DNA from: Vicinamibacterales bacterium | GTDB taxonomy: Bacteria; Acidobacteriota; Vicinamibacteria; Vicinamibacterales; 2-12-FULL-66-21 | NCBI GenBank assembly: GCA_036258175.1 | Contig: DATAEE010000391.1 | Coordinates: 2,833-66,832 of the forward strand | Direction of reading: 5' to 3' | DNA length: 64,000 bases | Shown here: one piece after another, positions 2,840 to 49,359 of the stretch | Layout: each line of letters begins with the position of its first letter | How positions within the stretch are numbered: position 1 is the first letter of the stretch | Notes under the pieces: model-generated | Seen by the model: the letters and a program-made list of their open reading frames with translations, nothing else | Databases searched by the model: none | What the model was told of the DNA's origin: nothing | Made by a program: the position numbers and the translations under genes

Positions 2840-5212
2840 ATGACTCGACCCCGATTGGCGATCTTTTCCGCGTGCGTGGTGTGCTTCGCCCTCGCGCAGA
2901 CGGGTGGCGCGCAGCGCATCACGAACGCCGTTCCTGACGTCGCGCGGCCGCTGCCGCTGTCGGCCGTCCGTCTGACGGGTGGGCCCCTCAAGCGCGCACA
3001 GGATCTCAACGGCGAGTACCTGCTCAAGCTTGAGCCCGATCGCATGCTCGCGTATTACAGGCAGCGCGCCGGCCTCGAGCCGAAGGCGGAGCCCTACGGC
3101 GGGTGGGATGGCGACGGCCGCAACCTCACCGGCCACATCGCGGGGCACTACCTCTCGGGCGTCAGCCTGATGTGGGCGGCGACGGGAGACGTGCGCTTCA
3201 AGGAGCGCGCCGATTACATCGTCAAGGAACTGAAAGAGGTCCAGGACAAACAGGCTGATGGTTTTGCCGGCGCGCTGGCAAAGGTCAAAGAGGCATTTGC
3301 GGAAGTGGGCAAGGGAAACATCCGTTCGGCCAGCTTCGATCTGAATGGCCTCTGGTCACCGTGGTACACGCTGCACAAGACCTACGCCGGCCTGCGGGAT
3401 GCGTATCGGTACACCGGCAACCGGACAGCGCTCGACGTCGAGATCGGATTCGCGACGTGGGCGGAAGCGATGCTCGCGCCGATGGACGATGCCCTGATTC
3501 AGAAGATGCTGAATACGGAGTTCGGCGGCATGAACGAGGTGATGGCGGACCTCTATGCCGACACCGGCGACAAGCGGTGGCTCACGCTCTCGTACAAGTT
3601 CGAGCACCGCGCGGTCCTCGATCCGCTCAAGCACCGCGAGGATCCGCTCGACGGCCTGCACGGGAACACACAGGTCCCGAAATTGATCGGATCGCTGTCC
3701 CGGTACGTGTACGCCGGGCAACCCGAGGACCGCACCGCGGCGGAGACCTTCTGGGATCGCGTCGCGCACCATCACACCTTCGCGAGCGGCGGGCATGGAA
3801 AAGATGAGTACTTCCGCGAGCCCGATCGTCTCGGCAACATCGTCGACGGGCGGACTGCAGAGACCTGCAACATCTACAACATGCTGAAGCTGACGCGTTC
3901 TCTTTTCGCGCTGAAGCCGGCCGTCGAGTACGCGGAGTTCCACGAGCGCGCGCTCTTCAACCACATCCTCGGATCGATTGATCCGGAGGACGGCGCCGTC
4001 TGCTACATGGTGCCGGTCGGGCGCGGCGTACGGCGCGAGTACCAGGACATGTTTCGTAGCTTCACGTGCTGCGTCGGCACGAGCATGGAGAGCCACGCGC
4101 TGCACGGACTGGGGATTTACTACGAGTCCGGCGATCGTCTCTGGGTCAACCTCTATGCGCCGTCGACCGCGGAGTGGAAGGCCGCGGGTGTCCGCGTCGC
4201 GATGGACACGACCTTTCCCGAAGGAGATTCGGCCACGTTGAAGGTGACCTCGGACGCGCCGAAGGCGTTCACGCTTGCGGTCCGCCGGCCCTCGTGGGCG
4301 AAGGATGGCTTCGCCGTCAGCGTGAACGGCAAGGCCGTCAAGGATCTTCCAGCCCCGGCGTCGTACGTCGAGCTCAATCGGACGTGGAAGAGCGGCGACA
4401 CTATCGCCGTGACGCTTCCGAAGGGCCTTGCGCTCGAACCGATGCCGGACAACGCGCGTCTTGCGGCCGTCATGTGGGGTCCGCTCGTGCTGGCCGGCGA
4501 TCTCGGCCCGGCGCCGCAGCGCCGCACCGACGTGCCGTCCACCGGCCCGCCGACCGACACACCGCCCAGACCGGACGTTCCCGCGCTCGTCACCGCAGGG
4601 AGACCGGTCACCGACTGGGTGAAGCCGGTCGCTGGCAAGCCGGGCACGTTCCGGAGCGACGGCGTCGGACGGAGCAAAGACGTCGAGCTCGTTCCTTTTT
4701 ATCGTCTGCATCGCCGGACCTACGCCGCCTACTGGGATCTCTTCACGCCGGCGGAGTACGAAAAGAGGATGGCGGAGCTCAGTGCCGAGCGCGAGCGGCA
4801 GCAGAAGCTGGAGGCGTCGAGCATCGCTTTCGTCCAGCCTGGCGGGCAGGAGGCCGAGAAGCCGTTCAATCAGCAGGGCGAGGAGACGTCGATCGTCCGC
4901 GCCGAGGGCCGGCCGGGCCGGCGTGCCGCGAAGTGGTTCTCGTACGATCTGACGGCGTCCGCGCAACCCAGGGCGCTCGTCGTCACCTACAACAGCGACA
5001 ACCGCAGGCCTCGGTCGTTCGACATCCTCGTCGACGGGCGGAAAGTGGGCGAGCAACGGATCGATCAGAGCAGCGTGTCGCGCTTCTTCGACGTCGAGTA
5101 CCCGTTGCCCGCAGATCTCGTGCAGGGCAAACAGAAAAAGCTCACCGTCCGCTTCGAGGCGACGGGCGGGAACGAGGTCGCGCCGGTGTTTGCCGTCCGT
5201 CTCATCCGGTAA
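2840..5212 (+). CDS. GH127 (DUF1680) beta-L-arabinofuranosidase-like glycoside hydrolase, secreted
   Basis: Signal peptide MTRPRLAIFSACVVCFALAQTGGA. Motifs GHIAGHYLSG, HGNTQVPKLIG, AETCNIYNMLKL and FTCCVGTSMESH match the HypBA1-type Cys-rich region. Confidence 0.85.
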   Translation: MTRPRLAIFSACVVCFALAQTGGAQRITNAVPDVARPLPLSAVRLTGGPLKRAQDLNGEYLLKLEPDRMLAYYRQRAGLEPKAEPYGGWDGDGRNLTGHIAGHYLSGVSLMWAATGDVRFKERADYIVKELKEVQDKQADGFAGALAKVKEAFAEVGKGNIRSASFDLNGLWSPWYTLHKTYAGLRDAYRYTGNRTALDVEIGFATWAEAMLAPMDDALIQKMLNTEFGGMNEVMADLYADTGDKRWLTLSYKFEHRAVLDPLKHREDPLDGLHGNTQVPKLIGSLSRYVYAGQPEDRTAAETFWDRVAHHHTFASGGHGKDEYFREPDRLGNIVDGRTAETCNIYNMLKLTRSLFALKPAVEYAEFHERALFNHILGSIDPEDGAVCYMVPVGRGVRREYQDMFRSFTCCVGTSMESHALHGLGIYYESGDRLWVNLYAPSTAEWKAAGVRVAMDTTFPEGDSATLKVTSDAPKAFTLAVRRPSWAKDGFAVSVNGKAVKDLPAPASYVELNRTWKSGDTIAVTLPKGLALEPMPDNARLAAVMWGPLVLAGDLGPAPQRRTDVPSTGPPTDTPPRPDVPALVTAGRPVTDWVKPVAGKPGTFRSDGVGRSKDVELVPFYRLHRRTYAAYWDLFTPAEYEKRMAELSAERERQQKLEASSIAFVQPGGQEAEKPFNQQGEETSIVRAEGRPGRRAAKWFSYDLTASAQPRALVVTYNSDNRRPRSFDILVDGRKVGEQRIDQSSVSRFFDVEYPLPADLVQGKQKKLTVRFEATGGNEVAPVFAVRLIR

Positions 5213-5414
5213 CGCGGATTTCACGGATCACGCGAGCCACGGATTTCACGGATGACGCGGTTTTTTCTTTGCCGCAGATTCACGCAGATAAACGCAGATA
5301 AGCAGGCAAGAAAGACAAGCGAAGTCCGGTTCTGCGTGCGTCCTGCGTGTATCTGCGGTTCTTGAATCCGTGTAATCCGTGGTTCGTGATCGGGATCTGC
5401 GAAATCCGCGGCTA
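5210..5414. repeat. Composite inverted-repeat element (CACGGAT-type outer arms plus GCAGAT-type inner arms) filling a convergent intergenic gap
   Basis: The left end is TAACGCGGATTTCACGGAT. The reverse complement of the right end is TAGCCGCGGATTTCGCAGAT. The inner arms CCGCAGATTCACGCAGATAAACGCAGA and TCTGCGTGCGTCCTGCGTGTATCTGCGG are imperfect complements. The two end triplets are the stop codons of the flanking genes. Confidence 0.7.
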
Positions 5415-7714
5415 GAGCGTGATCGAAACCGGCCGTCCCTGGAACACGACGGTCTTCGTCGTAGTCGCGCCGGCTATTCGGGCCTCGATGGTCCGCGGCA
5501 TCGGTGGCCGCATCCGTGATCCTGGCTCGAGCCGCAGCGTCAGGCGACGCGCGCGATCGTCCCACGCCATCGCGATCCCCATCCACTCGCCTTTGCGGTA
5601 ATCAAACGTCCGCCCGTCGTCCTCGTAGAGCGTGAACGTTCCGTCAGCACCCGGGTACACGCGCACCTCGAACGGCGCGTCGATCTTTTCTGCGGTGAAC
5701 TGCTTGACGGGGCCGAGCGGCAGGATCGCGCCGGCGCGGACATACAGCGGGATCGTGGCGAGGTCGACGGGGCGCTGAAGCTCGCGGCCGCCGTCGATGT
5801 CCTGGCCTGTCCAGAAGTCGTACCACGTTCCATGCGGCAGGTAGACCGACCGGGATCCCGCGCCTTTTTCGGTCACCGGCGCCACGAGGATGTCGCGGCC
5901 CCACAAGTACTCGTCGCCGCGCGCCGACGCGATGCGATCGTCCGGGTAGTGGAGCCAAAGCGACCGCATGATCGGCAAGCCAGAGCGGGTCGTCTCGCGG
6001 ACCACGCTGTACAGGTAGGGCAGCAGTCGATAGCGAAGCTCCAGGTACTTGCGGCAGATCGGCTCGACTGCGGCGTTTCGGAGCTCCGACGCATCCGGAT
6101 TTGCCGCGCCGCTGTAGTTCGGCGTGATGATCTCGTTCGGGCCCAGCTCGCCCGTGTTCCAGCCCCACGGCAGACGCAGATGCCAGCTGCGGCCGTGCGC
6201 GCGAAAGAGCGGGCAGAACGCGCCGAACTGGAACCAGCGCACGTGCAGCTCGCCGGTGTACTCCGCGGTCGGCACGAAGCCGCCGATGTCCGTTCCCCAG
6301 TACGGAATGCCGCTCAGCCCGGTGTTGATCGCAACCGACACGTGCGTGCGGAGCGTTTCCCACGTCGTGTAGACGTCGCCGGACCATAGAAACGCCGCGT
6401 AGCGCTGCATCCCGGCGTGTCCGTTGCGATGCAACGCGAACGGGCGCTCGTTCGCGCGCCAGAGTTGCGAGCCTTCCCAATACATGCGATGCCGCGCGAG
6501 CCGTGACGGCGCGTCCAGGCCGTCCCCTTGATCCGGCCACCAGCCGTCGGCGCCGATGTCGTAGAGCGGCTTGTGATACGGCCAGTAGCAGCTGACCTTC
6601 CGGTCGTCCGGCCATTTGCCGTCGGCCGTCCGCCCGCTCGGCAAACGGTCGGCGTCACTGCACGGATCCGCCACCGCGCCAGCCAGGCGCCGGCCCTCGA
6701 GGACGATGTGGAGGACGACCTTGAAGTTGAGATCGTGCAGCGTGTCGATCATCCGCTTCGGATCGGGGAAGTTGCTGGCGTTCCAGGTGAACTCGCCGTT
6801 GTTCGTGTTCCACCCGGACGGCGTGAAGCCCGTGCCGAGATAGATGAGCGCGTCGCACGGCAGCCGCTTCTCGCGGAACGTCCGCGCCACCTTCACGATT
6901 TCGTCCGGGCCGGCGAGCGTGCGGTGCGACTGAAGATAGCCGAGCGACCAGAGCGGCGGCATTTCCGGATGACCAGTCAGTCGCGCATACTCGGCCATCA
7001 CCTGGACCGGGTCACGTGCTCCAACGATAAAGAGATCGAGCGGCAGGCCGTCCGTCGCGGGGTCGAAGCGGGCTTCCGGGCCCGTGAAATCGAACGACCC
7101 CTGCGGGTGATGGATGAACATCGCCCAGCCTGCGGTGCCGACGAGCCACTGCACGGGCGCGCGGCCTCCGTGCGTGCGCAGCCGGTAACCGCCCGACCGT
7201 TTTTCATCGCATCGGTCGAGCCGCGGCGATCGAATTGCGGCCCGCCCTCGCCAAGACCAAGAAGCGGCCCGTCACCAATGGGGAAGCGCAGCGTGCCTTT
7301 CCCGGGATCGATCTGAAGTTGCTGGACCATCCGGCCGTCTGCAGCGTCCACGCGGACGGTCAGCGGGTCGAAGGAAATAGATACGTTGAACGCGCCGCAG
7401 CGAATGCGGTGACGGTCGCCTGGGGGCATCACTTTCGCCACGGGCGCCGACGATGATGTCGCTGGCTGCGCGAGCGCGCCGTCGAGCGGGACGGACAGGG
7501 TGCGCCCACGGCCGCGCGGGCTCACCGTCACCCGGACGCTGTGCTGTCCGGAGGGCGCGACGGCCACTTCGATCCCCGGGCCTTCAGCCGTGGGGACTCT
7601 GACGAGAGCGGCCGCGCCCGCCGCGCCGAAGGTCTTCAGGGCGTCGCGTCTCGAGATAAAGGGGACAGCTACCTTTTTCCGCACGCCGTAAAAAGGTGAC
7701 TGTCCCCTTTTCAT
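5412..7714 (-). pseudogene. GH31 alpha-glucosidase/alpha-xylosidase-like gene, interrupted by a frameshift near 7190-7205
   Basis: The C-terminal 580 aa (ORF 5412..7154) carry GH31 motifs WWPDQGDG, WSGDVYTTWETL, GIPYWGTDIGGF and FCPLFRAHG. The N-terminal ~170 aa lie in another frame, as the tail of the 999-aa shadow ORF. They read MKRG..SRRDALKTFGAAGAAALV (Tat-like) through LGLGEGGPQFDRRGSTDAMKNG. The frames overlap between 7160 and 7275, next to a T5 run at 7200-7204. Confidence 0.75.
7658..7710. repeat. 53-nt double-stem palindromic element, copy A
   Basis: AAAGGGGACAG-CT-ACCTTTTT, an 11-nt loop, then AAAAAGGT-GA-CTGTCCCCTTT. The outer stem is 11 bp and the inner stem 8 bp. The second copy is at 25690-25742. 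Confidence 0.8.
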
Positions 7715-7723
7715 TGGCCGCCT

Positions 7724-10204
7724 ATGGTAATACCTATCTCCATGTTGCGAAGCGCGCGATTCTGCCTTCCAGTGGTTGCGGCGCTGACGGTTCTTGGTGC
7801 GGCGCAAACGCCACCCGGCTCGGCACGCAGCCTGAAGCGTGACTATCCAGTCCAGCCCGTACCCTTCACGGCGGTGCACCTGACCGACGTGTTCTGGGCG
7901 CCGAAGATCGAGACCAATCGCACCGTCACGATTCCGTTCGCGTTCGAGCAGTGCGAGCGAACGGGCCGCGTGGATTTGTTCGAGCGGGCCGCGACGGTGC
8001 TGCGCGGTCAGCCGCTCGAGAACCGCCAGCCGCCCGGGTATCCCTTCGACGACACTGACGTCTACAAGGTCATCGAGGGCGCATCGTATACGCTCAGCGT
8101 CCACCCTGATCCGAAGCTCGACGCCTACGTCGATTCGCTCATCGCGAAGATCGCCGCGGCGCAGGAGCCGGATGGCTACATTTACACCACGCGGACCATC
8201 GATCCGCAGAACCCGCACAAGTGGGCGGGGAAGGAACGATGGGAGCTCGAGCGCGACGACAGCCACGAGCTGTACAACCTCGGGCACTTGTACGAAGCGG
8301 CCGTGGCGCATTACCTCGCGACCGGCAAGCGCACGCTGCTCGACGTCGCCATCAAGAGCGCCAACCTGCTCGTGAGCGTGTTCGGTCCGGGCAAACGGTC
8401 GATCTGGCCCGGCCACCAGATCACTGAGATGGCGCTTGCGCGGCTGTATCGCGTGACCGGCGACGAGCGCTATCTGACGCTCGCGAAGTTCCTGCTCGAC
8501 GAGCGCGGGCCGAATCCCGGCGAGAAAGTGAACCCGCGCGGGTTGGCCTACAACCAGGCGCAGCAGCGCGTGGTCGAGCAGACCGAGCCCGTCGGCCACG
8601 CCGTCCGCGCAACGTACATGTACTCCGGAATGGCGGATGTCGCGGCGTTGACCGGCGACGCCGCCTACATTAAGGCGATCGACACGATCTGGGAAAACAC
8701 CGTCGGCAGGAAGCTGTACATCACCGGCGGGATCGGCGCGACGGGCGCCGGCGAAGCGTTCGGCCACCATTACGAGTTGCCGAACATGACGGCGTACAAC
8801 GAGACGTGCGCGTCGATAGGGATGGACTACTGGAACCACCGCCTGTTCCTGCTCCATGGCGACGCGAAGTACATCGACGTCATGGAGCGGACGCTGTTCA
8901 ACGGCTTGATCTCGGGCGTGTCGCTGGACGGCAAGACGTTCTTCTATCCGAACCCGCTCGAGTCGAACGGCCAGCACGAGCGCAGCCCGTGGTTCGGCGT
9001 CGCTTGCTGTCCATCGAACATCACACGGTTCCTGGCGTCGGTTCCCGGCTACGTGTACGCAAAGCAAGGTGAGACGATCTACGTCAACCTCTTCGCGGAA
9101 AGCAGGGCTGAGATCGACGTGGGCGGCGGACGCGTGCTGAAGATCGTCCAGGAAACGCGATATCCGTGGGACGGCCTGGTCCACCTGAAGATAGATCCGG
9201 GAGCTGCGCGGTTCTTCGAGATCAAAGTACGCATCCCGGGCTGGGCGAGCGACAGGCCCGTGCCGAGCGATCTCTACCGTTTCTATACAGTGACGCGTGA
9301 TTCCTTGGTCCGGAGGCGGATGCTGATGGTCAACGGTGAGCATGTCTCGTTGAACCAGGCAAAGGGCTATGCAAGCCTCGCGCGAGTCTGGCGTGCCGGA
9401 GACACGATCGATCTGAACCTTCCGATGCCAGTCCAACGCGTTTTCGCGCACGACAGCGTTGAAGCCGATCGCGGACGCGTCGCGCTGCAGCGCGGACCGT
9501 TGATGTTCGCCGCCGAGTGGCCCGACAATCCGAACGGCCGTGTACGCAATCTGGTTCTGACGGACTCGACGCCGTTGACCTCTGAGTTCCGGCCGAACCT
9601 GCTGAATGGCGTGCAGGTGATCACAGGACGCGCCACTGCGCTCGCGTTCGACGAGAAGGGCGCCGTCACGAAGACGGAGCAGGACTTCACAGCCATTCCG
9701 TATTACGCGTGGGCGAACCGCGGACGCGGGCAGATGATCGTCTGGCTGCCGAACTCGGAGGCGAACGCGCGACCCGCGCCGTACCCGACGCTCGCGACGG
9801 CCGCAACGGTGACGACCTCCGGCCGGAAGAACCCGCGGATGATCAATGACGGCGAGGAACCTCCAGCGTCCGCGGATTCGTCGTCGTATTTCGACTGGTG
9901 GCCGACGCGTGGGACGACCGAGTGGGCCGAGATGACGTTCGCGAAGACAGCGACGGTCTCCGGCGTCGAGCTGTATTGGTTCGACGACACCGGCCACGGC
10001 CAGGTGCGCGTGCCCGCCTCCTGGCGCCTCTTATATAAGGATGGCGCCGAGTGGAAGCCCGTCGCCCCGAGCGGTCCTTACGGTGTCGCGAAGGACGCCT
10101 GGAACAAAGTGGCGTTCGCGCCGGTCACGACCACCGCCCTGCGCCTCGAAGTGACGATGCAGCCGCAGTGGTCCGCGGGGATCCAGGAGTGGAAAGTTCG
10201 CTGA
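7724..10204 (+). CDS. GH127 (DUF1680) beta-L-arabinofuranosidase-like hydrolase with a C-terminal discoidin/F5-8 type C-like module
   Basis: The likely true start is ATG 7742, giving signal peptide MLRSARFCLPVVAALTVLGA. Motifs are SHELYNLGHLYEAAVAHY, GHAVRATYMYSGM, YNETCASIGM and FGVACCPSNITRF. The C-terminus EWAEMTFAKTATVSGVELYWFDD looks like a carbohydrate-binding jelly-roll. Confidence 0.85.
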   Translation: MVIPISMLRSARFCLPVVAALTVLGAAQTPPGSARSLKRDYPVQPVPFTAVHLTDVFWAPKIETNRTVTIPFAFEQCERTGRVDLFERAATVLRGQPLENRQPPGYPFDDTDVYKVIEGASYTLSVHPDPKLDAYVDSLIAKIAAAQEPDGYIYTTRTIDPQNPHKWAGKERWELERDDSHELYNLGHLYEAAVAHYLATGKRTLLDVAIKSANLLVSVFGPGKRSIWPGHQITEMALARLYRVTGDERYLTLAKFLLDERGPNPGEKVNPRGLAYNQAQQRVVEQTEPVGHAVRATYMYSGMADVAALTGDAAYIKAIDTIWENTVGRKLYITGGIGATGAGEAFGHHYELPNMTAYNETCASIGMDYWNHRLFLLHGDAKYIDVMERTLFNGLISGVSLDGKTFFYPNPLESNGQHERSPWFGVACCPSNITRFLASVPGYVYAKQGETIYVNLFAESRAEIDVGGGRVLKIVQETRYPWDGLVHLKIDPGAARFFEIKVRIPGWASDRPVPSDLYRFYTVTRDSLVRRRMLMVNGEHVSLNQAKGYASLARVWRAGDTIDLNLPMPVQRVFAHDSVEADRGRVALQRGPLMFAAEWPDNPNGRVRNLVLTDSTPLTSEFRPNLLNGVQVITGRATALAFDEKGAVTKTEQDFTAIPYYAWANRGRGQMIVWLPNSEANARPAPYPTLATAATVTTSGRKNPRMINDGEEPPASADSSSYFDWWPTRGTTEWAEMTFAKTATVSGVELYWFDDTGHGQVRVPASWRLLYKDGAEWKPVAPSGPYGVAKDAWNKVAFAPVTTTALRLEVTMQPQWSAGIQEWKVR

Positions 10205-10330
10205 GCCACGGATGTCGCGGATCACGAAGCCACGGATTACACGGATTATTTCGCTACGGATTTCACGGATTCTTAAGGAACCGCAGATTCACGCAGATAC
10301 TATCTGCGTGAATCTGCGTCCATCTGCGGC
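10202..10330. repeat. Left arm of a composite inverted-repeat element (CACGGAT units plus a perfect GCAGAT hairpin)
   Basis: TGAGCCACGGATGTCGCGGATCAC begins at the GH127 stop codon. An 18-bp perfect stem, CGCAGATTCACGCAGATA/TATCTGCGTGAATCTGCG, lies at 10282-10318. Confidence 0.7.
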
Positions 10331-11619: not shown

Positions 11620-12861
11620 TCAGATCAGCGCCCGTCGGCGCTCGAGTAAATCGCGCTCGCGCGCGTTCGCAGCCCGGGCGATGGCCTCGGCGTACGCCTG
11701 CGCCGCCTCATCCCTCCGGTCCAGCCGGCGGAGGAGGTCGGCGCGAATCGCATGGAATAAATGATAGCGATTGAGATCGGTGTCGAGTCCATTCACCAGC
11801 GCAAGCGCCGCCGCGGGTCCTTCCACCTCGGCCACCGCGACGGCGCGGTTGAGCGCCACGACCGGGCTTGGCGCTATCGAGAGGAGCTGATCATACAGAT
11901 GAACGATCTGTTTCCAGTCCGTGTCGGATGCGACGCGCGCATCGCTGTGAACCGCATTAATCGCGGCCTGGATCTGGTACGGACCCGGTCGATTCCGCGC
12001 GAGACACCGCCGAACGATCGCCTGGCCTTCGGCGATGAGGTCGCGATTCCAGAGCCCGCGGTTCTGGTCAACGAGGAGGACGACGTCGCCGTCGGCGGTC
12101 GTGCGGGCTCCGCGCCGCGCTTCGATGAGCAGCATGAGCGCCCGCAGCCCCATGACCTCCGGTTCGTCCGGCAGCAGGCCGGCCAGGAGCCGTCCGAGAC
12201 GGATCGCCTCCGCACAGAGATCCTCGCGCACGAGGCGGTCCCCGGAGCTCGCCGTGTAGCCTTCGTTGAAGATCAGATAGACGACCGCGAGAACGGCGCG
12301 AACGCGAGCCGGCAGATCGGCTTCACCCGGGACCCGATAGGGGATTCGCGCGTCGCGAATCTTCCCCTTCGCCCGAACCAGCCGCTGCGCCATCGTCGGC
12401 TCCGGAACGAGGAACGCGCGCGCGATCTCCGCCGTCGTGAGGCCGCCGATGAGCCGCAGCGTCAGCGCGACCTGAGCCTCGGTGGCGAGGGTGGGATGAC
12501 AGCACGTGAAGATCAGACGCAGTCGATCGTCCTGCACGTCTCCCTCTTCCTCGCCATCTGAAAGGTTGCCTCTCGCCAGAAGCTGCGCGGCCTGTGCGTG
12601 CCGATCCTCGCGAGAGGCCTCGCGCCTTAGTCGGTCGATCGCACGGTTGCGCGCTGTGGTGATGATCCAGGCCGCCGGATTGGGCGGTACTCCGTCGGAC
12701 GGCCATCGCTGCAGCGCCACGGTGAACGCATCCTGAACGGCTTCTTCCGCAAGATCGATATCGCGGAAGTACCGGACGAGGACCGCGACCGCGCGGCCGT
12801 ACTGCTCGCGGAACACACGTTCGATCTGTGGTACGGCGAGGATTTGCTCGGCAGCGATCAG
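11620..12861 (-). CDS. ECF-type RNA polymerase sigma-70 factor with a long C-terminal extension
   Basis: Region 2 is [18 protein letters not shown] and [20 protein letters not shown]. Region 4 is [29 protein letters not shown]. About 200 further residues follow. The start is uncertain: GTG 12816, or a non-canonical codon abutting the YCII stop. Confidence 0.8.
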
Positions 12862-21513: not shown

Positions 21514-21560
21514 GTAGCGCAGCCCGTTAGGGCTGCCGTAGCGCAGGCCTTCAGGCCTGC
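21514..21560. repeat. Two tandem REP-type hairpins (GTAGC-GCAGCCC-GTTA-GGGCTGC and GTAGC-GCAGGCC-TTCA-GGCCTGC)
   Basis: 7-bp GC stems with 4-nt loops at 21519-21536 and 21543-21560. They lie between the permease and binding-protein genes. Relatives are at 26715, 37647 and 49337. Confidence 0.8.
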
Positions 21561-22656: not shown

Positions 22657-23841
22657 TTGACATCCGCCACTGGCAGTTACGCGGAGATACTGGCCGAACG
22701 CATCGAGGCCGAGCGCGTGAGGCTGGCCCAGGCCTGGCTCGACCGGCTCAAGACCGTGCTCTCGGTCGAGCCGAACGACGTCTTTCCAACCGACAGGCTA
22801 CTGGATCACATCCCTCTGCTGCTCGGGGAGATCGCCCGCTACCTGCGAGCGCCGAAGACCGAAGAGATCGCCGCGAACGCTGCCGTCATCGACAAGGCGC
22901 GCGAGCTGGGGCAGCTACGCCACGAGCAGAAAGCCTCGGTACACCAGATCCTGCGGGAGTACGAGCTGCTCGCAGAGATCCTGGAGAGTTTCGTCGCGTC
23001 GGAGACGAAGCGCCTCGATCTGGAGCCGGCGTCCTCCGTGTGCCTGGACGCGATGCGCAGACTGATGCGGTCGGTGCGCGCGCTGATGCGCACGACCGTC
23101 GACACGTTCGTCGGCGAATACACCGCAACCATCGAGGCGCAGACCGAGCAGCTCCGGAGCTATAACCGGATGGCCAGCCATGAGTTGCGCTCGCCTGTCG
23201 GCACGATCCTGGTCGCGGCGAGCCTGATCATCCGGGAGGACGTCCAACACGATCCCCAGCGGTGGGAGCGCATCGCAAGCACGATTCGGCGGAACGCGGA
23301 GCGTTTGAGCGTGCTGTTGAGCACGCTGCAGCGCGTCGCGCACCTCGACGAGGCGCTCGACGGCCCGAGCTCGCAGGTCGTCGAAGTGGCCTCGCTCGCG
23401 GAGGAGGTTGCGCGCCAGCTTCGGGAAATGGCGCAGGCCCGTCAAGTGGCCGTACGAGTCGATCCGGGGCTGCCTGTTCTACTGATCGATCCGGCGCGGC
23501 TCGAACTTGCCCTGCTGAACCTCATCTCCAACGGAATCAAGTACAGCGACCCGGCGAAGCCGGATCGCTTCGTCGAGATTCGCTTCGACGGCCAGTCGGA
23601 TTCGACCTGCACGATTTGCGTGCGCGACAACGGCCTGGGTATCCCAGACGACGCGAAGCCAGCGGTCTTCAAGCGGTTCTTCCGGGCACACGCCGAGCTG
23701 GACGACCGGCTCGGCATAGACGGCAGCGGTCTCGGCCTCGCCATAGTCGCCGAATGCGTGCAGGCGCTCGGCGGTGCGATCACCTGCGAGTCGCGCGCCG
23801 GCGAGGGCACGACCTTCTACCTCGAGCTCCCCGTCAAGTAA
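22657..23841 (+). CDS. Cytoplasmic sensor histidine kinase (orphan; no adjacent response regulator)
   Basis: H-box MASHELRSPVG. N-box LISNGIKY. DNGLGIP and GSGLGLAIV are the G-boxes. There are no TM segments. TTG start. Confidence 0.85.
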   Translation: MTSATGSYAEILAERIEAERVRLAQAWLDRLKTVLSVEPNDVFPTDRLLDHIPLLLGEIARYLRAPKTEEIAANAAVIDKARELGQLRHEQKASVHQILREYELLAEILESFVASETKRLDLEPASSVCLDAMRRLMRSVRALMRTTVDTFVGEYTATIEAQTEQLRSYNRMASHELRSPVGTILVAASLIIREDVQHDPQRWERIASTIRRNAERLSVLLSTLQRVAHLDEALDGPSSQVVEVASLAEEVARQLREMAQARQVAVRVDPGLPVLLIDPARLELALLNLISNGIKYSDPAKPDRFVEIRFDGQSDSTCTICVRDNGLGIPDDAKPAVFKRFFRAHAELDDRLGIDGSGLGLAIVAECVQALGGAITCESRAGEGTTFYLELPVK

Positions 23842-23847
23842 GTCTTC

Positions 23848-23929
23848 CATCGTCAATCGTCAATCGTCCCCAATCATCAATCGACAATCGCCGAACAATC
23901 GACAATCAACAATCCACAGTCCACAATGG
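23848..23929. repeat. Tandem array of ~12 degenerate heptamers (CAATCGN)
   Basis: CCATCGT CAATCGT CAATCGT CCCC AATCAT CAATCGA CAATCGC CGAA CAATCGA CAATCAA CAATCCA CAGTCCA CAATGG. It lies between the kinase stop (23841) and the lhr start (23933). Confidence 0.85.
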
Positions 23930-23932
23930 AGT

Positions 23933-26900
23933 GTGGCTCTCTCGCAATTTCATCCTGTCGTGGCGCGCTGGTTTGCCGAGACGCTCGGCGAACCGACGAC
24001 GGCTCAGGTCCGCGGGTGGGCGTCGATCCGCGAAGGCCGTCATGCGCTCGTGGCGGCCCCGACCGGATCGGGCAAGACACTCGCGGCATTCCTCGGCGCG
24101 CTCGACGATCTCCTTCAAGAAGGATTACGAGGCCCGCTGCCGGATGAGGTGCGAGTCGTCTACGTCTCGCCTCTGAAGGCGCTCAGCGCGGACATCGTCA
24201 AAAACCTCGGCGAGCCGCGGCGCGGAATCCGGGAGCTGGCGGAGGAGGCGGACCTCGACGCGCCGCGCATTACGGCGGCGGTGCGGACCGGCGACACGAC
24301 TCAATCCGAGCGCGCCGCGATGCTGCGTACGCCGCCGCACATTCTAGTCACGACTCCCGAGTCGCTTTACCTCCTGCTCACTGCGGAACGCAGCCGCGAG
24401 ATGCTCCGCACCGCGCGCATGGTCATCGTGGACGAGATCCACGCCGTCATCGGGACCAGACGTGGCGCGCACCTCGCGCTGTCGCTGGAGCGGCTCGAGG
24501 CATTGACCGAGGGGACGCTCCAACGCGTCGGTCTTTCGGCTACTCAGAATCCAATCGAAGAAGTTGCCCGGTACCTCATTGGCACCGATCGCACCGAGTG
24601 CGCCATCGTCGATGAAGGGCACCGCAGGGAAATGGATCTTGCGCTGGAGATCCCGCGGTCGCCGATCGAAGCGGTGATGTCCCACGAGGTGTGGGAGGAG
24701 TACTACGATCGCCTGACCGAGCTGATCGCGGCGCACCGGACGACGCTGGTGTTCGTGAACACGCGGCGTCTGGCGGAGCGGGTGGCCCGGCACCTCAGCG
24801 ACCGCTTAGGCGACACCGTCGTCACGGCGCATCACGGCAGCCTGTCGAAGGAGCGGCGGCTCGATGCGGAATCACGACTCAAAGGCGGTCACCTGAAAGC
24901 GCTCGTCGCGACCGCGTCCCTTGAACTTGGCATCGACATCGGCTCGGTCGATCTCGTCTGCCAGATCGGCTCGCCGCATCACATCGCGACCTTCCTGCAG
25001 CGCGTCGGGCGGTCCGGCCACAGCATCCATGGGCTGCCGAAGGGGCGGCTGTTTGCCGTCTCGCGCGACGACCTCGTCGAGTGCGCCGCGCTGGTGCGGT
25101 CGGTCAGGCGCGGCGAGCTCGACCGGATCGTGTCGCACGACGCGCCGCTCGACGTGCTGGCGCAGCAGGTGGTCGCTGAGTCGGCGTCCCGTGAGTATTC
25201 GGAGGACGAGTTGTTCGCGCTCGTGCGGCGGGCGTGGCCTTACCGCGCGCTCGAGCGGCGCGACTTCGATGCCGTGGTCAAGATGACGGCCGAGGGGTTC
25301 GCCACGCGGAGGGGCCGCCGCAGCGCCCTCGTCCATCGAGATGAAGTGAATGCGAAGGTGAGGGGACGTCGCGGCGCCCGCTCGCTCGCGATCACCTCGG
25401 GTGGCGCCATCCCGGAAGTGGCGGACTACCGCGTTGTGCTGGTCCCGGAGGACACGTTCATCGGCACGCTGAACGAGGACTTCGCGATCGAGAGCTCCGC
25501 CGGAGACATCTTTCAACTCGGCAACGCGTCGTGGCAGATCCTGCAGGTCGGCCCGGGCATCGTGCGCGTAGCGGACGCGAAAGGAGCACCGCCGACAATA
25601 CCGTTCTGGTTCGGCGAGGCGCCGGCGCGCAGCGACGAGCTGTCACGCTCGGTCAGCAATCTGCGCTCGGAAGTCGAGAGCGCGCTGGAAAAGGGGACAG
25701 CCCCCTTTTTACAAGAAACGGAAAAAGGTGACTGTCCTCTTTCTCCCGCCGCCGCGGAGCAGATCGTCGCGTACCTGGCCGACGGGCGGCGGGCGCTGGG
25801 CGTGCTGCCGACACAGGACACGCTCGTGCTCGAGCGCTTCTTCGACGAATCGGGCGGGATGCAGCTCGTGCTTCATGCGCCGTTCGGCAGCCGCGTGAAC
25901 CGCGCGTGGGGTCTCGCACTCCGCAAGCGCTTCTGCCGGCAGTTCAACTTCGAGCTGCAGGCGGCGGCCAACGAGGACGCCATCCTACTCTCGCTCGGGC
26001 CGCAGCACTCGTTCCCGCTGGCGGACGTGTTCCGGTACCTGCACCCTGCGACGGCGCGGGACGTGCTGGTGCAAGCATTCCTCGACGCGCCCGTGTTCCA
26101 GACGCGCTGGCGCTGGAACACCACGGTGTCGCTCGCGGTCCCGCGCAACCGCCACGGCAAGAAAGTCCCGCCGCAGCTCCAGCGCATGCTGGCGGACGAC
26201 TTGATGGCGGCGGTGTTTCCAGATGCGGCCGCGTGCCTCGAGAACATTCCGGGCGACCGGGAAATCCCGGACCATCCTCTGGTCAGTCAGACCGTTCGTG
26301 ACTGCCTCGAGGAGGCGATGGACTTCGAGACGCTGTCGGCAGTGCTCGAGCGGATCCATCGTGGCGAGTTGCGTCTCGTGTCGCGCGACACGCCTGAACC
26401 ATCACCGCTCGCGCACGAAATCCTGAACGCTCGCCCGTACGCGTTCCTGGACGATGCCCCGCTCGAAGAGCGCCGGACCCAGGCCGTCTATACCCGACGC
26501 GCGACGGAGCCGGCGTCCGGAGGAGACCTCGGCGCGCTCGACGTGGCGGCGATCGAACGGGTGCGCGACGACGCACGGCCAGAGCCGCGCGACGCCGACG
26601 AGCTGCACGACGCGCTGCTGACTGCAGGATTCCTGACGATGGGGGAGGGGGCCGCCTTCCAGCCCGAGCTGTTCGAGCCCCTGATTGCCGGTGGTCGGAT
26701 CACTCGCGTAGTGGCGCAGCCCTTCAGGGCTGCGGAAGCGGACTGGCTCTGGACAACAGCCGAACGGCTTCCCGAGCTGCTCGCGGTTCATCCGGGCGCG
26801 TCCCTCGATCCGCCGGTCATGCCCCCGGCATCGCGCACCGCACGAACCTGGAGGCGCGAGGAAGCGATCGTCGAGCTGCTTCGCGGCAGACTCACGGTTA

Positions 26901-28249
26901 CCGGACCGACGACGGCCGGCGAACTGGCGCAGTCCCTCGACGTCACCGAAGCAGAGGCGATGACGGCCCTCGAGGCGCTCGAAGCGGAAGGCGTCGTCCT
27001 GCGCGGTTTTTTCACGCCCGAATCCGCGCTGGAATGGTGCGATCGGCGGCTGCTCGCGCGAATCCATCGCTACACGCTCAATCGCCTTCGCGCGGAGATC
27101 GAGCCGGTGAGTCCGGCCGACTTCATGCGTTTCCTGTTCGTGTGGCAGCACGTGGACAAGACGACGCGTCTGAGCGGCCTCGACGGTCTGCGCGCGGTTG
27201 TCGGAGAGCTCGACGGGTTCGAACTGCCAGCGCGCGCGTGGGAGCGGTCGGTGCTTCCTGCGCGGCTCGATCGCTACGAGCCGTCGATGCTCGACCTGCT
27301 GTGCCTCACCGGTCATGTGGGATGGGCGCGTCTCTCCGCGGGATCAGTACCTGTGGCGGGCGTCAGCCCGATCGCGCTGTTTCTTCGAGAGCACGCTGAC
27401 GGTTGGCTGACGCTGCGCGCCGAAGGTGGTACGAGGCTTCCGCCTAGTCCGCCGGACGAGGAGCCATCGCTGACCCCGCTCACGCGCACCGTGCTGGGCG
27501 TACTCGTGGCGCGCGGCGCATCGTTCCTCAAAGAGATCGCAACGGCTTGCGCGATCGACGAGGTGACGGCTCGAAGCGCCGTCGGCGAGCTGGTCTCGGC
27601 GGGGCTCATCACGTCCGATGGCTTCGCCGGCCTGCGCGCGATCCTGCGCGCCCGGCGGCCGGATGCGGCCCGCGAACGCGGCGCCGATTCTTCAGGGCGC
27701 TGGTCGCTTCTTCGGCCACGGATCACAGCGGATGACGGACCACAGATCACCGCGGATCGTGAAGCCGCCGTGGAGGTCCAGGCCTGGGCGCTTCTGCGCC
27801 GGTACGGCGTCGTGTTCCGCAGGCTGCTCGCGCGGGAGACGAACGCGGCGCCGTGGCGCGAACTGGCCCGCATGTATCGCCGCCTCGAAGCCCGTGGCGA
27901 GATCCGCGGCGGCCGGTTCGTGAGCGGCATGTCCGGCGAGCAGTTCGCGCTCGGCGAGGCGGTCGAGCGGCTGCGCGAGGTTCGCCGTACGCCGGTCGAC
28001 GACACGCTCATTTCGATCAGCGCCGCCGATCCGCTCAACCTCGCGGGCATCGTGACGCCCGGCGACCGGGTGCCGGCGCGCGGCGCGAGCCGGATGGTCT
28101 ACCGCCACGGCGTACCGATCGCGGTGATGGAAGGGGACTACGTGCGGCCGCTCGTCGAGTACGATTCTTCGCTCGCCGGCGAGGTCGCAACCGCGCTCGC
28201 CGGTCGGAGAGTGCCCGCGGTCCTGAGCGGTTTCGTCGGACGGCACTAA
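23933..28249 (+). CDS. lhr: Lhr-family large ATP-dependent DEAD/DEAH-box helicase
   Basis: The probable GTG start at 23933 gives (M)ALSQFHPVVARWFAE. Motif I is APTGSGKTLAAFL. VDEIH, helicase C HHGSLSKERR, then NRAWGLALRKRFC and a long C-terminal domain follow. The track ORF start at 23774 runs through the heptamer array. Confidence 0.9.
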   Translation: MALSQFHPVVARWFAETLGEPTTAQVRGWASIREGRHALVAAPTGSGKTLAAFLGALDDLLQEGLRGPLPDEVRVVYVSPLKALSADIVKNLGEPRRGIRELAEEADLDAPRITAAVRTGDTTQSERAAMLRTPPHILVTTPESLYLLLTAERSREMLRTARMVIVDEIHAVIGTRRGAHLALSLERLEALTEGTLQRVGLSATQNPIEEVARYLIGTDRTECAIVDEGHRREMDLALEIPRSPIEAVMSHEVWEEYYDRLTELIAAHRTTLVFVNTRRLAERVARHLSDRLGDTVVTAHHGSLSKERRLDAESRLKGGHLKALVATASLELGIDIGSVDLVCQIGSPHHIATFLQRVGRSGHSIHGLPKGRLFAVSRDDLVECAALVRSVRRGELDRIVSHDAPLDVLAQQVVAESASREYSEDELFALVRRAWPYRALERRDFDAVVKMTAEGFATRRGRRSALVHRDEVNAKVRGRRGARSLAITSGGAIPEVADYRVVLVPEDTFIGTLNEDFAIESSAGDIFQLGNASWQILQVGPGIVRVADAKGAPPTIPFWFGEAPARSDELSRSVSNLRSEVESALEKGTAPFLQETEKGDCPLSPAAAEQIVAYLADGRRALGVLPTQDTLVLERFFDESGGMQLVLHAPFGSRVNRAWGLALRKRFCRQFNFELQAAANEDAILLSLGPQHSFPLADVFRYLHPATARDVLVQAFLDAPVFQTRWRWNTTVSLAVPRNRHGKKVPPQLQRMLADDLMAAVFPDAAACLENIPGDREIPDHPLVSQTVRDCLEEAMDFETLSAVLERIHRGELRLVSRDTPEPSPLAHEILNARPYAFLDDAPLEERRTQAVYTRRATEPASGGDLGALDVAAIERVRDDARPEPRDADELHDALLTAGFLTMGEGAAFQPELFEPLIAGGRITRVVAQPFRAAEADWLWTTAERLPELLAVHPGASLDPPVMPPASRTARTWRREEAIVELLRGRLTVTGPTTAGELAQSLDVTEAEAMTALEALEAEGVVLRGFFTPESALEWCDRRLLARIHRYTLNRLRAEIEPVSPADFMRFLFVWQHVDKTTRLSGLDGLRAVVGELDGFELPARAWERSVLPARLDRYEPSMLDLLCLTGHVGWARLSAGSVPVAGVSPIALFLREHADGWLTLRAEGGTRLPPSPPDEEPSLTPLTRTVLGVLVARGASFLKEIATACAIDEVTARSAVGELVSAGLITSDGFAGLRAILRARRPDAARERGADSSGRWSLLRPRITADDGPQITADREAAVEVQAWALLRRYGVVFRRLLARETNAAPWRELARMYRRLEARGEIRGGRFVSGMSGEQFALGEAVERLREVRRTPVDDTLISISAADPLNLAGIVTPGDRVPARGASRMVYRHGVPIAVMEGDYVRPLVEYDSSLAGEVATALAGRRVPAVLSGFVGRH
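25690..25742. repeat. 53-nt double-stem palindromic element, copy B (inside the lhr coding sequence)
   Basis: AAAGGGGACAG-CC-CCCTTTTT, an 11-nt loop, then AAAAAGGT-GA-CTGTCCTCTTT. The arms match copy A at 7658-7710, while the loop sequence is unrelated. Confidence 0.8.
26715..26734. repeat. REP-type hairpin CGCAGCCC-TTCA-GGGCTGCG inside the lhr coding sequence
   Basis: The core is the same as the intergenic hairpins at 21519, 37647 and 49343. It is translated as VAQPFRAAEA. Confidence 0.6.
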
Positions 28250-28278
28250 GCACAGATCGTCGATGCCTCGTGCCTTGT

Positions 28279-28398
28279 GCCGGGTGCCTGGTGCGAACGG
28301 GGTGCCGGGTGCCTGGTGGGTGCCTGGTGCTTGGTGAGTGCGTGGTGCACCCGGCACCCACCTGGCACCCGGCACCCCGCTCGCACCAGGCACCAGGC
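28279..28398. repeat. Long near-perfect hairpin built from GGTGCC/GGCACC units (51-nt arms, 18-nt loop)
   Basis: Left arm 28279-28329 against the reverse complement of 28348-28398 gives 47/51 identical by hand alignment. It begins 30 nt after the lhr stop and could act as a terminator or REP. Confidence 0.85.
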
Positions 28399-28547
28399 AT
28401 GTGGCACCAGGCACCCAGACGCCAAACAGCGATCGAATCGAATTCTCAAATCTTCGTCATCTCGAGATGTGATGGTGAGAAGATCATCGACATCATGCGG
28501 AGATTCTATGAATCGATCGCGAGCGCGCTCGCTATCATGCGTTCGCG

Positions 28548-35457: not shown

Positions 35458-37160
35458 AGATCCCGCGCCGCTCCTACGCGAATCTCTACGGTCCGACCGC
35501 GGGTGACCGGGTCCGGCTCGGCGATACCCGACTCATCCTGAAAATCGACCGCGACTTCGTGAGTTACGGCGAAGAGGTCGTGTTCGGTGGCGGGAAGGTT
35601 ATTCGCGACGGTCAGGGGCAGTCGCAGCGGTCGCGTGCGGAAGGCGCACCGGATCTCGTCATCACCAACGTCATCGTGCTCGATCACTGGGGCATCGTGA
35701 AGGCAGACGTCGGCGTGCGGGACGGGAAGATTTCCGCGATCGGCAAGGCGGGGAATCCCGACATCCAGGAGGGCGTGACCGCCGGCCTCGAGATCGGCGC
35801 CTCCACCGAAATCGTCGCCGGCGAAGGGAAGATCCTCACGGCCGGCGGCATCGATGCGCACATTCATTTCATCAGCCCGCAGCAGGCCATCGAAGCACTC
35901 TATTCGGGCGTGACGACGATGATTGGAGGTGGCACCGGTCCTGCGGACGGAACGAACGCGACGACGTGCACGCCCGGCGCATGGTATCTGCATCGTATGA
36001 TCGAGGCCGCTGAAGGCCTGCCGCTCAACTTCGGTTTCCTGGGCAAGGGAAACGCCTCGAAGCCGGAGCCGCTCGTCGAGCAGATTATGGCGGGCGCAAT
36101 CGGCCTCAAGCTGCACGAGGACTGGGGCACGACTCCGGCCGCTATCGACACGGCGCTGTCCGTCGCCGACGAGCACGATGTGCAGATCGCGATTCACACC
36201 GACACGCTCAACGAGTCGGGCTTCGTGGAAGACACGATCGCGGCAATCAAAGGACGGACGATTCACACGTACCACAGTGAAGGGGCCGGCGGCGGGCACG
36301 CTCCCGACATCCTTCGAGTCTGTGCGCAGCCGAACGTGCTGCCGTCGAGCACGAATCCGACGATGCCGTACACGGTGAATACGCTGGACGAGCATCTCGA
36401 CATGCTGATGGTCTGCCACCATCTGAACGCGCAGGTGCCGGAAGATGTTGCGTTCGCCGAGTCGCGGATCAGGCCGGAGACGATGGCGGCGGAGGACGTG
36501 CTGCACGACTTGGGCGCCATCAGCATGATGTCGTCCGACTCGCAGGCCATGGGCCGCGTCGGCGAAGTGATCGCGCGCACGTGGCAGACCGCGCACGTGA
36601 TGAAGGACACCCGCGGCGCGTTGCCGGGGGACACGGCGGAAAGCGACAACCTCCGCATCCGCCGCTACGTCGCGAAGTACACCATCAACCCCGCGCGGAC
36701 CCACGGCATCGCCGACTATGTCGGCTCGATCGAAGTCGGAAAGTACGCGGATCTGGTGCTGTGGTCGCCGGCGTTTTTCGGCATCAAGCCGGATCTGGTC
36801 ATCAAGAGCGGCATGATCGTCGCGGCGCTGATGGGCGATCCGAACGCCTCAATCCCGACGCCGCAGCCCGTCCGGTACCGGCCGATGTTCGGCGCGTTCG
36901 GCCGTGCACCCGAATCGCTCGCGTTCACGTTCGTATCGCGCGTATCGATGGAGCGTGGATCTCTGGGATGCCGAGTCCGGCGCACGGTGCTGCCGGTCCG
37001 GAACACCCGATCGCTCGGCAAGCGGGACATGGCGCTCAACGACGCCTTGCCGCGGATCGAAGTGGATCCGGAGAGCTACACTGTCACGATTGACGGCGAG
37101 AGGATTGTGCCGCGCGGGGCGGCCGTCCTGCCGCTCGCCCAGAGGTACTTTCTATTCTGA
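35454..37160 (+). CDS. ureC: Urease alpha subunit
   Basis: ATG 35454 with an ATGA overlap with ure[29 protein letters not shown] and TINPA. Confidence 0.95.
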
Positions 37161-37646: not shown

Positions 37647-37664
37647 GCAGCCCTAAAGGGCTGC
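37647..37664. repeat. REP-type hairpin GCAGCCC-TAAA-GGGCTGC in the ureE-ureF spacer
   Basis: The stem is the same as at 21519, 26715 and 49343. Confidence 0.7.
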
Positions 37665-37674
37665 GCCACCAAGA

Positions 37675-39804: not shown

Positions 39805-40156
39805 CCACGGATTACCGCGGATCTCAAAACAGCCACGGATCGGATTTTTCTAACCACAGATGAACGCAGATTCACGCAGATCGGAATCTGCGTGGCGCAC
39901 GCTCGGAGCGGCCGGCGGAGCCGGCCGCCTGGCTGGGACTGCGTAGCCACGGCCGTGAGACAAAGGCTCGTGTTGAACGTCTCACGGTCGTGGCTACGCA
40001 GTCCCAGCCTTCGCGCCTGCGGCGCGACCGAGCGGCGCCCTGGGTTGATCTGCGGTTCTTTAAATCCGTGAAATCCGTGAAATCCGTGGTTTCGTGATCC
40101 GAGATCAGTGGTGATCCGTGGCTTCGTGATCCGAGATCCGTGGTGATCCGTGGCTA
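39802..40156. mobile_element. MITE-like composite palindromic element (355 bp) with 24-bp terminal inverted repeats and a central 31-bp-stem hairpin
   Basis: Left end TAGCCACGGATTACCGCGGATCTC against the reverse complement of the right end TAGCCACGGATCACCACGGATCTC gives 22/24. The central arms at 39931-39961 and 39979-40009 are 30/31 complementary. There is an inner CACGCAGAT/ATCTGCGTG hairpin and ATCCGTG tandem units. It has no coding capacity. Confidence 0.55.
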
Positions 40157-49336: not shown

Positions 49337-49359
49337 GTAGCGCAGCCCTTTAGGGCTGC
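49337..49359. repeat. REP-type hairpin GTAGC-GCAGCCC-TTTA-GGGCTGC
   Basis: It lies in the DUF1592-DUF1552 spacer and is near-identical to 21514-21536. Confidence 0.75.

Follow-up and report, generated by a model that had tools for sequence, protein, structure and literature searches.

A palindromic 53-nt element in frame in the Lhr helicase gene of a Vicinamibacterales bacterium is probably an old, tolerated REP doublet

Why should a helicase gene carry, within its open reading frame (ORF), a palindrome whose arms recur elsewhere on the same contig? The question is posed by a 64-kb stretch of contig DATAEE010000391.1 from a Vicinamibacterales bacterium (Acidobacteriota), referred to here as the window, in which a 53-nt element occurs twice: once inside the gene for the helicase Lhr (copy B) and once between two divergent genes (copy A). 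Several scenarios may explain such an element. It could be a repetitive extragenic palindromic (REP) doublet spread by a transposase, a hairpin with a function inside Lhr, a miniature inverted-repeat transposable element (MITE), or the product of selection on the encoded peptide or of convergence. Our analysis favors the first of these, with a probability of roughly 0.8: the element is probably a REP doublet (REPIN-like and nonautonomous) of the type associated with REP-associated tyrosine transposases (RAYTs) or with TIRYT genes, and its Lhr copy an old in-frame insertion that has been tolerated. The features concerned are as follows.

23933..28249, plus strand: Lhr helicase gene, 1438 codons plus stop, within ORF 23774..28249, with a GTG start at 23933
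25690..25742, plus strand: copy B, probable 53-nt REP doublet (hairpin), in frame in Lhr as (E)KGTAPFLQETEKGDCPLS
25690..25710, plus strand: left arm of copy B, AAAGGGGACAGCCCCCTTTTT, two mismatches to the consensus; holds GGGGACAG, which fits GGGGWSAS
25711..25721, plus strand: loop of copy B, ACAAGAAACGG, 11 nt
25722..25742, plus strand: right arm of copy B, AAAAAGGTGACTGTCCTCTTT, one mismatch to the consensus
7658..7710, no strand assigned: copy A, probable 53-nt REP doublet, between the divergent GH31-like (minus) and GH127 (plus) genes

Both copies have the same 21-nt inverted arms (AAAGGGGACAGTCACCTTTTT / AAAAAGGTGACTGTCCCCTTT), copy A reading AAAGGGGACAGCTACCTTTTT (arm), CCGCACGCCGT (loop), and AAAAAGGTGACTGTCCCCTTT (arm). 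Each 21-nt unit is composed of an A-tract, GGGGACAGTCACC, and a T-tract and is nearly palindromic by itself; therefore, left-arm and right-arm patterns both match every arm, and two arms pair into a stem of ~21 bp around a short spacer. With up to three mismatches allowed, the arm consensus matches the window at four places only, namely, the arms of copies A and B (zero to two mismatches each), and at none in 100 dinucleotide-preserving shuffles, so the near identity of the arms reported in the initial annotation stands. Folded as RNA, either strand of each copy gives a hairpin, with energies from -29 to -33 kcal/mol and z-scores from -3.8 to -6.1. An Rfam scan of the window at gathering thresholds returned no family at copy A or copy B. 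The loops agree at 3 of 11 bases. They had been called unrelated, which is correct for this pair but not for the family, as each has relatives elsewhere: the copy B loop at the unrelated loci L108 (TCAAGAAACGT) and L141 (ACAAAGAACGA), and the copy A loop among the CTGCASYGCCA type of L134, L191, L200, L212, and L218. Since loops recur at unrelated loci, the whole 53-nt unit appears to be what gets copied.

Read from the GTG at 23933, the product of the host gene of copy B is identical to database protein P0001, its closest named relatives are from Vicinamibacterales, and the ORF at 23774..28249 matches the Pfam families DEAD, Helicase_C, WH_Lhr, DEAD_assoc, WH3_Lhr, and WH4_Lhr. The copy B peptide, EKGTAPFLQETEKGDCPLS, lies between WH_Lhr and DEAD_assoc, immediately ahead of LPTQDTLVLERFFDE, confirming the earlier placement of the element in a linker of an open 1438-codon frame. 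In an alignment with Mycobacterium smegmatis Lhr (PDB 5V9X and 7LHL), this stretch is the least conserved part. Two other repeats border the gene. Approximately 10 tandem heptads CAATCNN (CAATCGT CAATCGT ... CAATCGA CAATCAA CAATCCA) occupy positions 23845-23925, immediately 5' of the start codon, and a 150-nt imperfect palindrome of GGTGCC(T/G)GGTG-like units, with 67-nt arms that are 88% complementary, lies at 28264-28413, right behind the Lhr stop codon and ahead of the glutamate synthase gene.

In related contigs, ORFs bracketed by the arms encode Y1/HUH (IS200-like, RAYT-like) transposases. Near-identical arms flank a Y1 gene on both sides in contigs from Planctomycetota (L004), Gammaproteobacteria (L074), and Nitrospira (L006), and an arm stands on one side of a transposase gene at L093, L099, L174, and L067. 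At L153, where the arm sequence is the same as in the window, a doublet marks the 3' end of the transposase gene, and a single arm stands 79 nt ahead of the start codon. Where the start could be set (L074, L004, and L153), arms precede the gene by 27-79 nt and follow it by 10-118 nt. The arm-flanked ORFs of L153, L004, L074, and L006 exceed the threshold for Pfam Y1_Tnp, and the best NCBIfam match is "REP-associated tyrosine transposase" (87.5, 70.9, and 66.4 bits for the three proteins tested; cut-off, 80). The HUH motif is present in three of four proteins (L153, L004, and L074) and was not picked out in L006. Identity among the proteins is 27-49%.

These associations also bear on the MITE scenario, according to which the element would be a deletion derivative of a DDE-type insertion sequence, moved via its terminal inverted repeats. 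The 21-nt inverted ends are what such a derivative would have, as is the occurrence of the same ends with different internal sequences among subfamilies. Yet the copies have no direct target-site duplication; instead, their flanks are inverted and extend the palindrome, often through convergent stop codons, and the transposase-like genes found bracketed by arms are all Y1/HUH and none DDE. Lacking both direct duplications and a DDE gene, the MITE model is very unlikely, and we rejected it.

Two published systems resemble the element closely. REP and REPIN elements with their RAYT transposases (Bertels & Rainey 2011, PMC3116915; Bertels 2017, PMC5581495; also Nunvar 2010, Ton-Hoang 2012) likewise consist of two inverted short palindromic units that form a hairpin around a short spacer and have units that flank a Y1/HUH gene (here in related contigs); dispersal of the family and a usual place just 3' of genes appear to be further likenesses, to judge from the contigs sampled. 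They differ in their GTAG tag and in their hosts, Enterobacteria or Pseudomonas rather than Acidobacteriota, and also in that both window copies lie within reading frames, copy A putatively. Closer still in sequence are the RAYT-like TIRYT genes of Di Nocera et al. 2013 (PMC3733652), which are flanked by inverted repeats sharing GGGGWSAS; these repeats form moderately abundant families, occur as dimers or clusters, and include a well-defined group in Acidobacteria. Every left arm of our family has GGGGACAG, which fits GGGGWSAS, and right arms have its complement, CTGTCCCC; dimers are the rule, and RAYT-like genes are flanked. The published examples are from Koribacter, Terriglobus, and other genera, not from Vicinamibacterales. 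The same study found intragenic REPs to be frequent in DNA replication and repair genes and described different REPs at about the same recB site in two Xanthomonas species (PMC3733652). Thus, both this kind of element and in-frame REPs in repair genes are already published, and the present element adds a member. A full-text literature search with the core sequences returned unrelated primer matches only, and neither this 21-nt arm nor its in-frame copies were found by it.

How widespread is the family? Scanning GTDB genomes with the pattern AAAAAGGNNNCTGTCCCCTTT and three free positions gave at least 119 loci in nearly every phylum, a pattern too generic to serve as a census; many of the matches listed are A5-GGGG-NCTGT-CCCC-T5 palindromes. 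Among the matches listed, window-type doublets (GGGGACAGTCACC ... GGTGACTGTCCCC) come from Acidobacteriota and Vicinamibacterales metagenome-assembled genomes (MAGs; L001, L022, L023, L109, and L111), and variant doublets are found at L036, L086, L088, L101, L102, and L108. The 64-kb window holds two copies, and one related MAG has L001, L022, and L102 among the matches listed. A complete scan of metagenome contigs for the exact arm gave 101 loci, mostly on GC-rich contigs from soil or sediment, with 15 copy-bearing contigs in one soil metagenome. Most of these loci are inverted doublets with spacers of 11-13, 18, 22, 29, 37-39, or 53 nt, the spacer sequences being conserved within subfamilies.

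Some relatives of the arm stand apart from the window type. Two subfamilies with the same arm have longer conserved spacers, of 37-39 nt (CGCGATGCGCGAGGCAGGCCGTGAGCACCCCGGAGA-like) or 29 nt (GCCGGAACGGCCCTTCGGGTGCTTCGCAC-like). Many of these longer-spacer copies lie within one soil metagenome, sample Ga0190265 (L131, L142, L145, L152, L163, L164, L194, L195, L201, L207, L220, L222, and L224), and others are found at L144, L148, L172, and L208. A near-identical 23-nt palindrome, AAAAAGGGGACTGTCCCCTTTTT, occurs in many phyla (L004, L006, L009, L012, L020, L045, L058, L064, L071, L074, L092, L115, and others). It flanks RAYT-like genes in MAGs of Planctomycetota, Nitrospira, and Gammaproteobacteria, and in Myxococcota it is embedded within a longer palindrome, TTAACCCTTTC...GAAAGGGTTAA. 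It is unusual for a REP sequence to be conserved between phyla in this way.

To describe where family members sit, we took 85 distinct doublets outside Lhr on contigs of at least 58% GC. Of these, 41 (48%) lie within 30 nt behind the stop codon of an ORF supported by the GC content of its third codon positions. Nine of the 41 are enclosed by the ends of two convergent genes, whose stop codons often lengthen the palindrome (TGAAAAGGGG...CCCCTTTTCA). This habitat agrees with the published distribution of REPs; such an extragenic location, mostly 3' of genes, was seen in the sampled family and in neither window copy. About four doublets (~5% of the 85) are in frame within genes:

L001: in MetH, a clean 16-residue insertion relative to PDB 4CCZ
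L218: in the r2-r4 linker of an ECF sigma factor
L155: in a large membrane protein
L148: in the C-terminal tail of an asparagine synthase (AsnB)

The reading frame of the element differs between host genes, and whether a frame stays open is set by the loop: where CGT ends the loop and AAAAA follows, the EKGT frame acquires a TAA, and intragenic copies that use the EKGT frame end their loops in CGG or CGA instead. The suggestion that the element tolerates, or is selected for, frame-preserving insertion thus survives in its first half only; with about half of the sampled copies behind stops and ~5% intragenic, the family is not specialized for coding sequence.

The Rickettsia palindromic elements (RPE), attributed to Ogata and colleagues in 2000, are reportedly in-frame palindromic repeats in protein-coding genes as well. 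What the present element has in common with RPE and with intragenic REPs is in-frame insertion of a palindrome, adding roughly 20-30 residues at permissive sites, with DNA-repair helicases and nucleases as frequent hosts; as with RPE, there are in-frame copies in several genes, here those for Lhr, MetH, the ECF sigma factor, the membrane protein, and the AsnB tail. The host phylum, the 53-nt length, and the transposase association argue against membership among RPE, and the likeness is one of analogy only. Sequence family and host differ from those of both groups, and one Lhr linker here carries at least four or five families across orthologues.

The habitat of the extragenic copies also recalls bidirectional intrinsic terminators, in which a GC-containing hairpin likewise stands between an A-tract and a T-tract; the location of family members between convergent stop codons is a further likeness. 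Unlike such terminators, the element has a very long stem (~21 bp) and a sequence conserved across unrelated loci, and copy B is intragenic, with a UCUUUCU tail on the sense strand that amounts to an interrupted U-tract. A terminator scan of the Lhr region found only a sub-hairpin, half of the element, on the minus strand, and such hits were no more frequent than in shuffled sequence.

We next ask whether copy B is an insertion and, if so, how old. Across 120 Lhr proteins (P0001-P0120), the stretch bounded by PFWFGEAP and LERFFDE ranges in length from 68 to 149 residues, and the copy B peptide is confined to the closest clade:

P0001 and P0002: EKGTAPFLQETEKGDCPLS
P0004 and P0005: KKGTATFLQETENGDCPLS
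P0063: EKGTVTFLQATKKGDCPLS
P0003: remnant, EKGTDCPLFG

Mycobacterium Lhr lacks the peptide, as do Lhr orthologues of 74% identity or less, so the ~18 residues are an insertion. Every orthologue that has the peptide also has the palindrome in its DNA, with a homologous loop. The same insertion is present at L124 (97%), L120 (82%), and L123 (82%), and its loop, ACAAGAAACGG, is identical in the window, L124, and L120 and differs by two bases in L123 (ACAAGCAACGA). In an 84%-identical Lhr orthologue (L121/L122, positions 11825-11860), the center of the element has been deleted, leaving AAAAGGGGACAG-AT-TGTCCCCTTTT; this remnant, AAAAGGGGACAGATTGTCCCCTTTT, forms a perfect 12-bp stem and encodes EKGTDCPLF. 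The surroundings of Lhr are also kept among orthologues, with a histidine kinase gene upstream and a glutamate synthase gene downstream. A homologous loop together with conserved synteny points to one insertion into Lhr followed by vertical inheritance rather than to repeated insertion. Copy B is thus best read as a single old insertion. It passed by descent into lineages that have only 79-80% identity in their Lhr genes, and it can be dated to before a nucleotide divergence of about 20%.

Since then, the element has changed less than the gene around it. The Lhr gene of the window agrees with those of L120 and L123 at 79-80% of nucleotides and at only 49-54% of fourfold-degenerate sites, a value close to saturation given the base composition; within the element, identity is 86-94%. 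Compared with L120, the element ranks 20th to 31st of ~1400 sliding windows of 18 codons, and in all five pairs compared, its third-position identity is in the top 1-10% of such windows. In all five sequences, the proportion of codons ending in A or T is 0.47-0.68 in the element versus 0.14-0.18 in the remaining Lhr gene. As the surrounding linker is hypervariable, this conservation is not at the protein level. The expectation of a mobile element conserved as nucleotides was therefore well founded, given the arms flanking Y1 genes, the copies in related genomes and soil metagenomes, and the AT-rich, conserved third positions.

The same data speak to selection on the peptide as a functional Lhr motif or, as a variant without a shared mobile origin, to convergence of generic terminator-like hairpins. 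The peptide is indeed kept in several orthologues, and A5-GGGG-NCTGT-CCCC-T5 does resemble a generic bidirectional terminator found in many phyla. However, rare AT-ending codons have been retained across near-saturated synonymous divergence, no orthologue encodes the peptide with nonpalindromic codons, and the element's frame differs from gene to gene; the recurrence of loops between unrelated loci and the link of the arms to transposase genes also tell against these explanations, which we regard as scarcely credible.

Two further ideas found no support. Gene conversion limited to the arms was rejected as the cause of the conservation, as loop and arms are equally conserved among orthologues. 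For compensatory evolution of the stem there is no support either: the arm differences among orthologues are one-sided, with T>C and A>C changes in the left arm that give mismatches and one G-U wobble in L123. Such one-sided changes indicate a stem that is eroding slowly and is not being kept by compensation.

A different possibility is that the hairpin functions within Lhr, for instance, in ribosome pausing between domains, in sense or antisense attenuation or termination, or as a processing site, with different lineages recruiting different REPs. In the linker between DLRxDVE and DWLVxETGIP, hairpin repeats from no fewer than four or five unrelated families stand in frame among Lhr orthologues. 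By peptide signature, repeat-like peptides are found in the linker of 48 of the 120 orthologues (~40%), and signature matches number 64 in the linker versus 11 in the rest of the protein. Three cases were confirmed on DNA, with linker-region folds of -70 to -85 kcal/mol:

L229, 4729-4866: GAAAAGGGGCCGTACCCCTTTTT...AAAAAGGGGTACGGCCCCTTTTC
L230, 4729-4893: three GTAG-type units (GGTAGTGTCCGGCTTTAGCCGGAC)
L231, 4741-4860: a doublet of GTAGCGCAGCCCTTTAGGGCTGC-like units

A role for the hairpin would fit this accumulation of unrelated hairpin families in one linker and the rarity of REP-like peptides elsewhere in Lhr, as well as third positions that are among the most conserved of the gene in the most variable part of the protein and an antisense-strand hairpin followed by TTTT. 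Nevertheless, ~60% of orthologues have no recognizable repeat in the linker, the noncompensatory changes leave mismatches in the left arm, the center of the element is lost in L121/L122, the antisense T-tract is weak in L123, and the same element stands in frame in unrelated genes, as tolerated insertions would. On balance, a functional hairpin seems unlikely. We are slightly more doubtful still that hairpin repeats truly target, or are selected at, the point in Lhr where the winged-helix domain meets domain 4. If they were, the hairpin in Lhr might work in cis, through intragenic attenuation, antisense termination, or cotranslational pausing; alternatively, hairpins of Y1 transposases might preferentially invade, or persist in, repair helicase genes whose products act on such structures.

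The window's Lhr gene has a second repeat of another kind, in a second variable loop ahead of AERLPEL. It is a GTAG-type REP, GTGGCGCAGCCCTTCAGGGCTGC, at 26711..26733 on the plus strand (context, 26680-26780), in frame and encoding VAQPFRAA. In other Lhr orthologues, the loop on the AERLPEL side has REP-like or palindrome-like peptides, such as ELRIKNLELSIL and EFQIPNSKFQIL. Further copies of this GTAG type (GTAGCGCAGCCCTTYAGGGCTGC) start at 21514 and 21538 (a tandem pair, 21514-21560) and lie at 37647-37669 and 49337-49359; the genome therefore hosts at least two distinct repeat families.

Taken as a REP doublet, the element could have reached its present place as follows. A Y1 transposase would move the hairpin in trans as single-stranded DNA. 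Copies landing behind genes would persist where an A/T-tract hairpin is harmless or useful, for example, as a bidirectional terminator or a 3' stabilizer. The Lhr copy would have landed in the surface linker, itself hypervariable, that joins the winged-helix domain to domain 4, where, being by chance free of stops and a multiple of three in length, it would have added 18-19 translated and tolerated residues, to be inherited vertically ever since.

Several observations weigh against this interpretation. The arms of both window copies lack the GTAG or CGTC tetranucleotide tag, and classical REPs carry GTAG. There is no arm-flanked Y1 transposase gene within the 64-kb window, the flanking being known from related contigs only, and two of the three transposase homologues tested fall below the NCBIfam cut-off. 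No transposition chemistry, target site, or duplication could be defined for the element. The position of extragenic copies and their A and T tracts suggest a role as bidirectional terminators or at 3' ends, an argument from position and sequence only. Finally, copy B of Lhr evolves more slowly than neutral sites, which a pure passenger model does not explain.

As a REP doublet, the element would extend RAYT-type hairpins, studied mostly in Proteobacteria, to the abundant and poorly studied soil Acidobacteriota, and it would offer a datable case of a REP repeat turned into part of a protein. It would also caution against two misreadings: strings such as EKGT..F...KGDCPL, VRLKADTT/SGFSRT, and ALKGCAT/AQPFRAA in Vicinamibacterales proteins would be footprints of repeats rather than protein motifs, and the length of the Lhr linker should not be taken as functional divergence. 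The concentration of repeat families in this linker, together with the slow evolution of copy B, makes it a system in which to ask whether intragenic REPs are tolerated or functional.

Copy A appears to lie at the 5' end of a GH31-like gene:

6998..7714, minus strand: 5' part of the GH31-like gene, frameshifted relative to ORF 5412..7271; its N terminus, MKRGQSPFYGVRKKVAVPF-ISRRDALK..., would include copy A

On the minus strand, an ATG at 7714-7712 is followed by 54 nt of copy A and then by ATC TCG AGA CGC ..., which encodes ISRRDALKTFGAAGAAAL. This sequence is a twin-arginine (Tat) signal (Pfam TAT_signal, E = 0.002) with the Tat motif ISRRDALK, and most of 120 GH31-like homologues begin M-x(2-9)-[ST]RR. 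A 69%-identical orthologue in L127 begins MSSAISRRDALR and has no element upstream. Copy A would thus lie either in codons 2-19 of the gene or, if a GTG in its loop is the start codon, in the leader. The frameshift falls near 7150-7200, separating the N-terminal part (7714..6998) from the rest (ORF 5412..7271). Two independent database entries, P0167 and P0170 (99-100% identity; P0170, 99%), start after it, and the L127 orthologue (3238-5497) is also split, into two overlapping gene calls; the split could reflect a pseudogene, an assembly error, or recoding. With a frameshift in the gene and two possible start codons, translation of copy A is only plausible, and the initial claim that both copies are translated is secure for copy B alone.

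Other structures in the window are of separate interest. A perfect 18-nt palindrome, CGCAGATTCACGCAGATA/TATCTGCGTGAATCTGCG, and a further partial copy of it occupy 10281-10329, a short way past the GH127 gene, which ends at 10204. At 35603-35893 on the minus strand, within the urease gene cluster, a full-length match to the Rfam 5' ureB sRNA (76 bits) is most likely due to the conserved coding sequence of urease and not to an sRNA gene. A hairpin containing GTAG, GGCTGGGACTGCGTAGCCACGGCCGTGAGAC, with 31-nt arms that are 97% complementary and a 17-nt loop, is found at 39931-40009.

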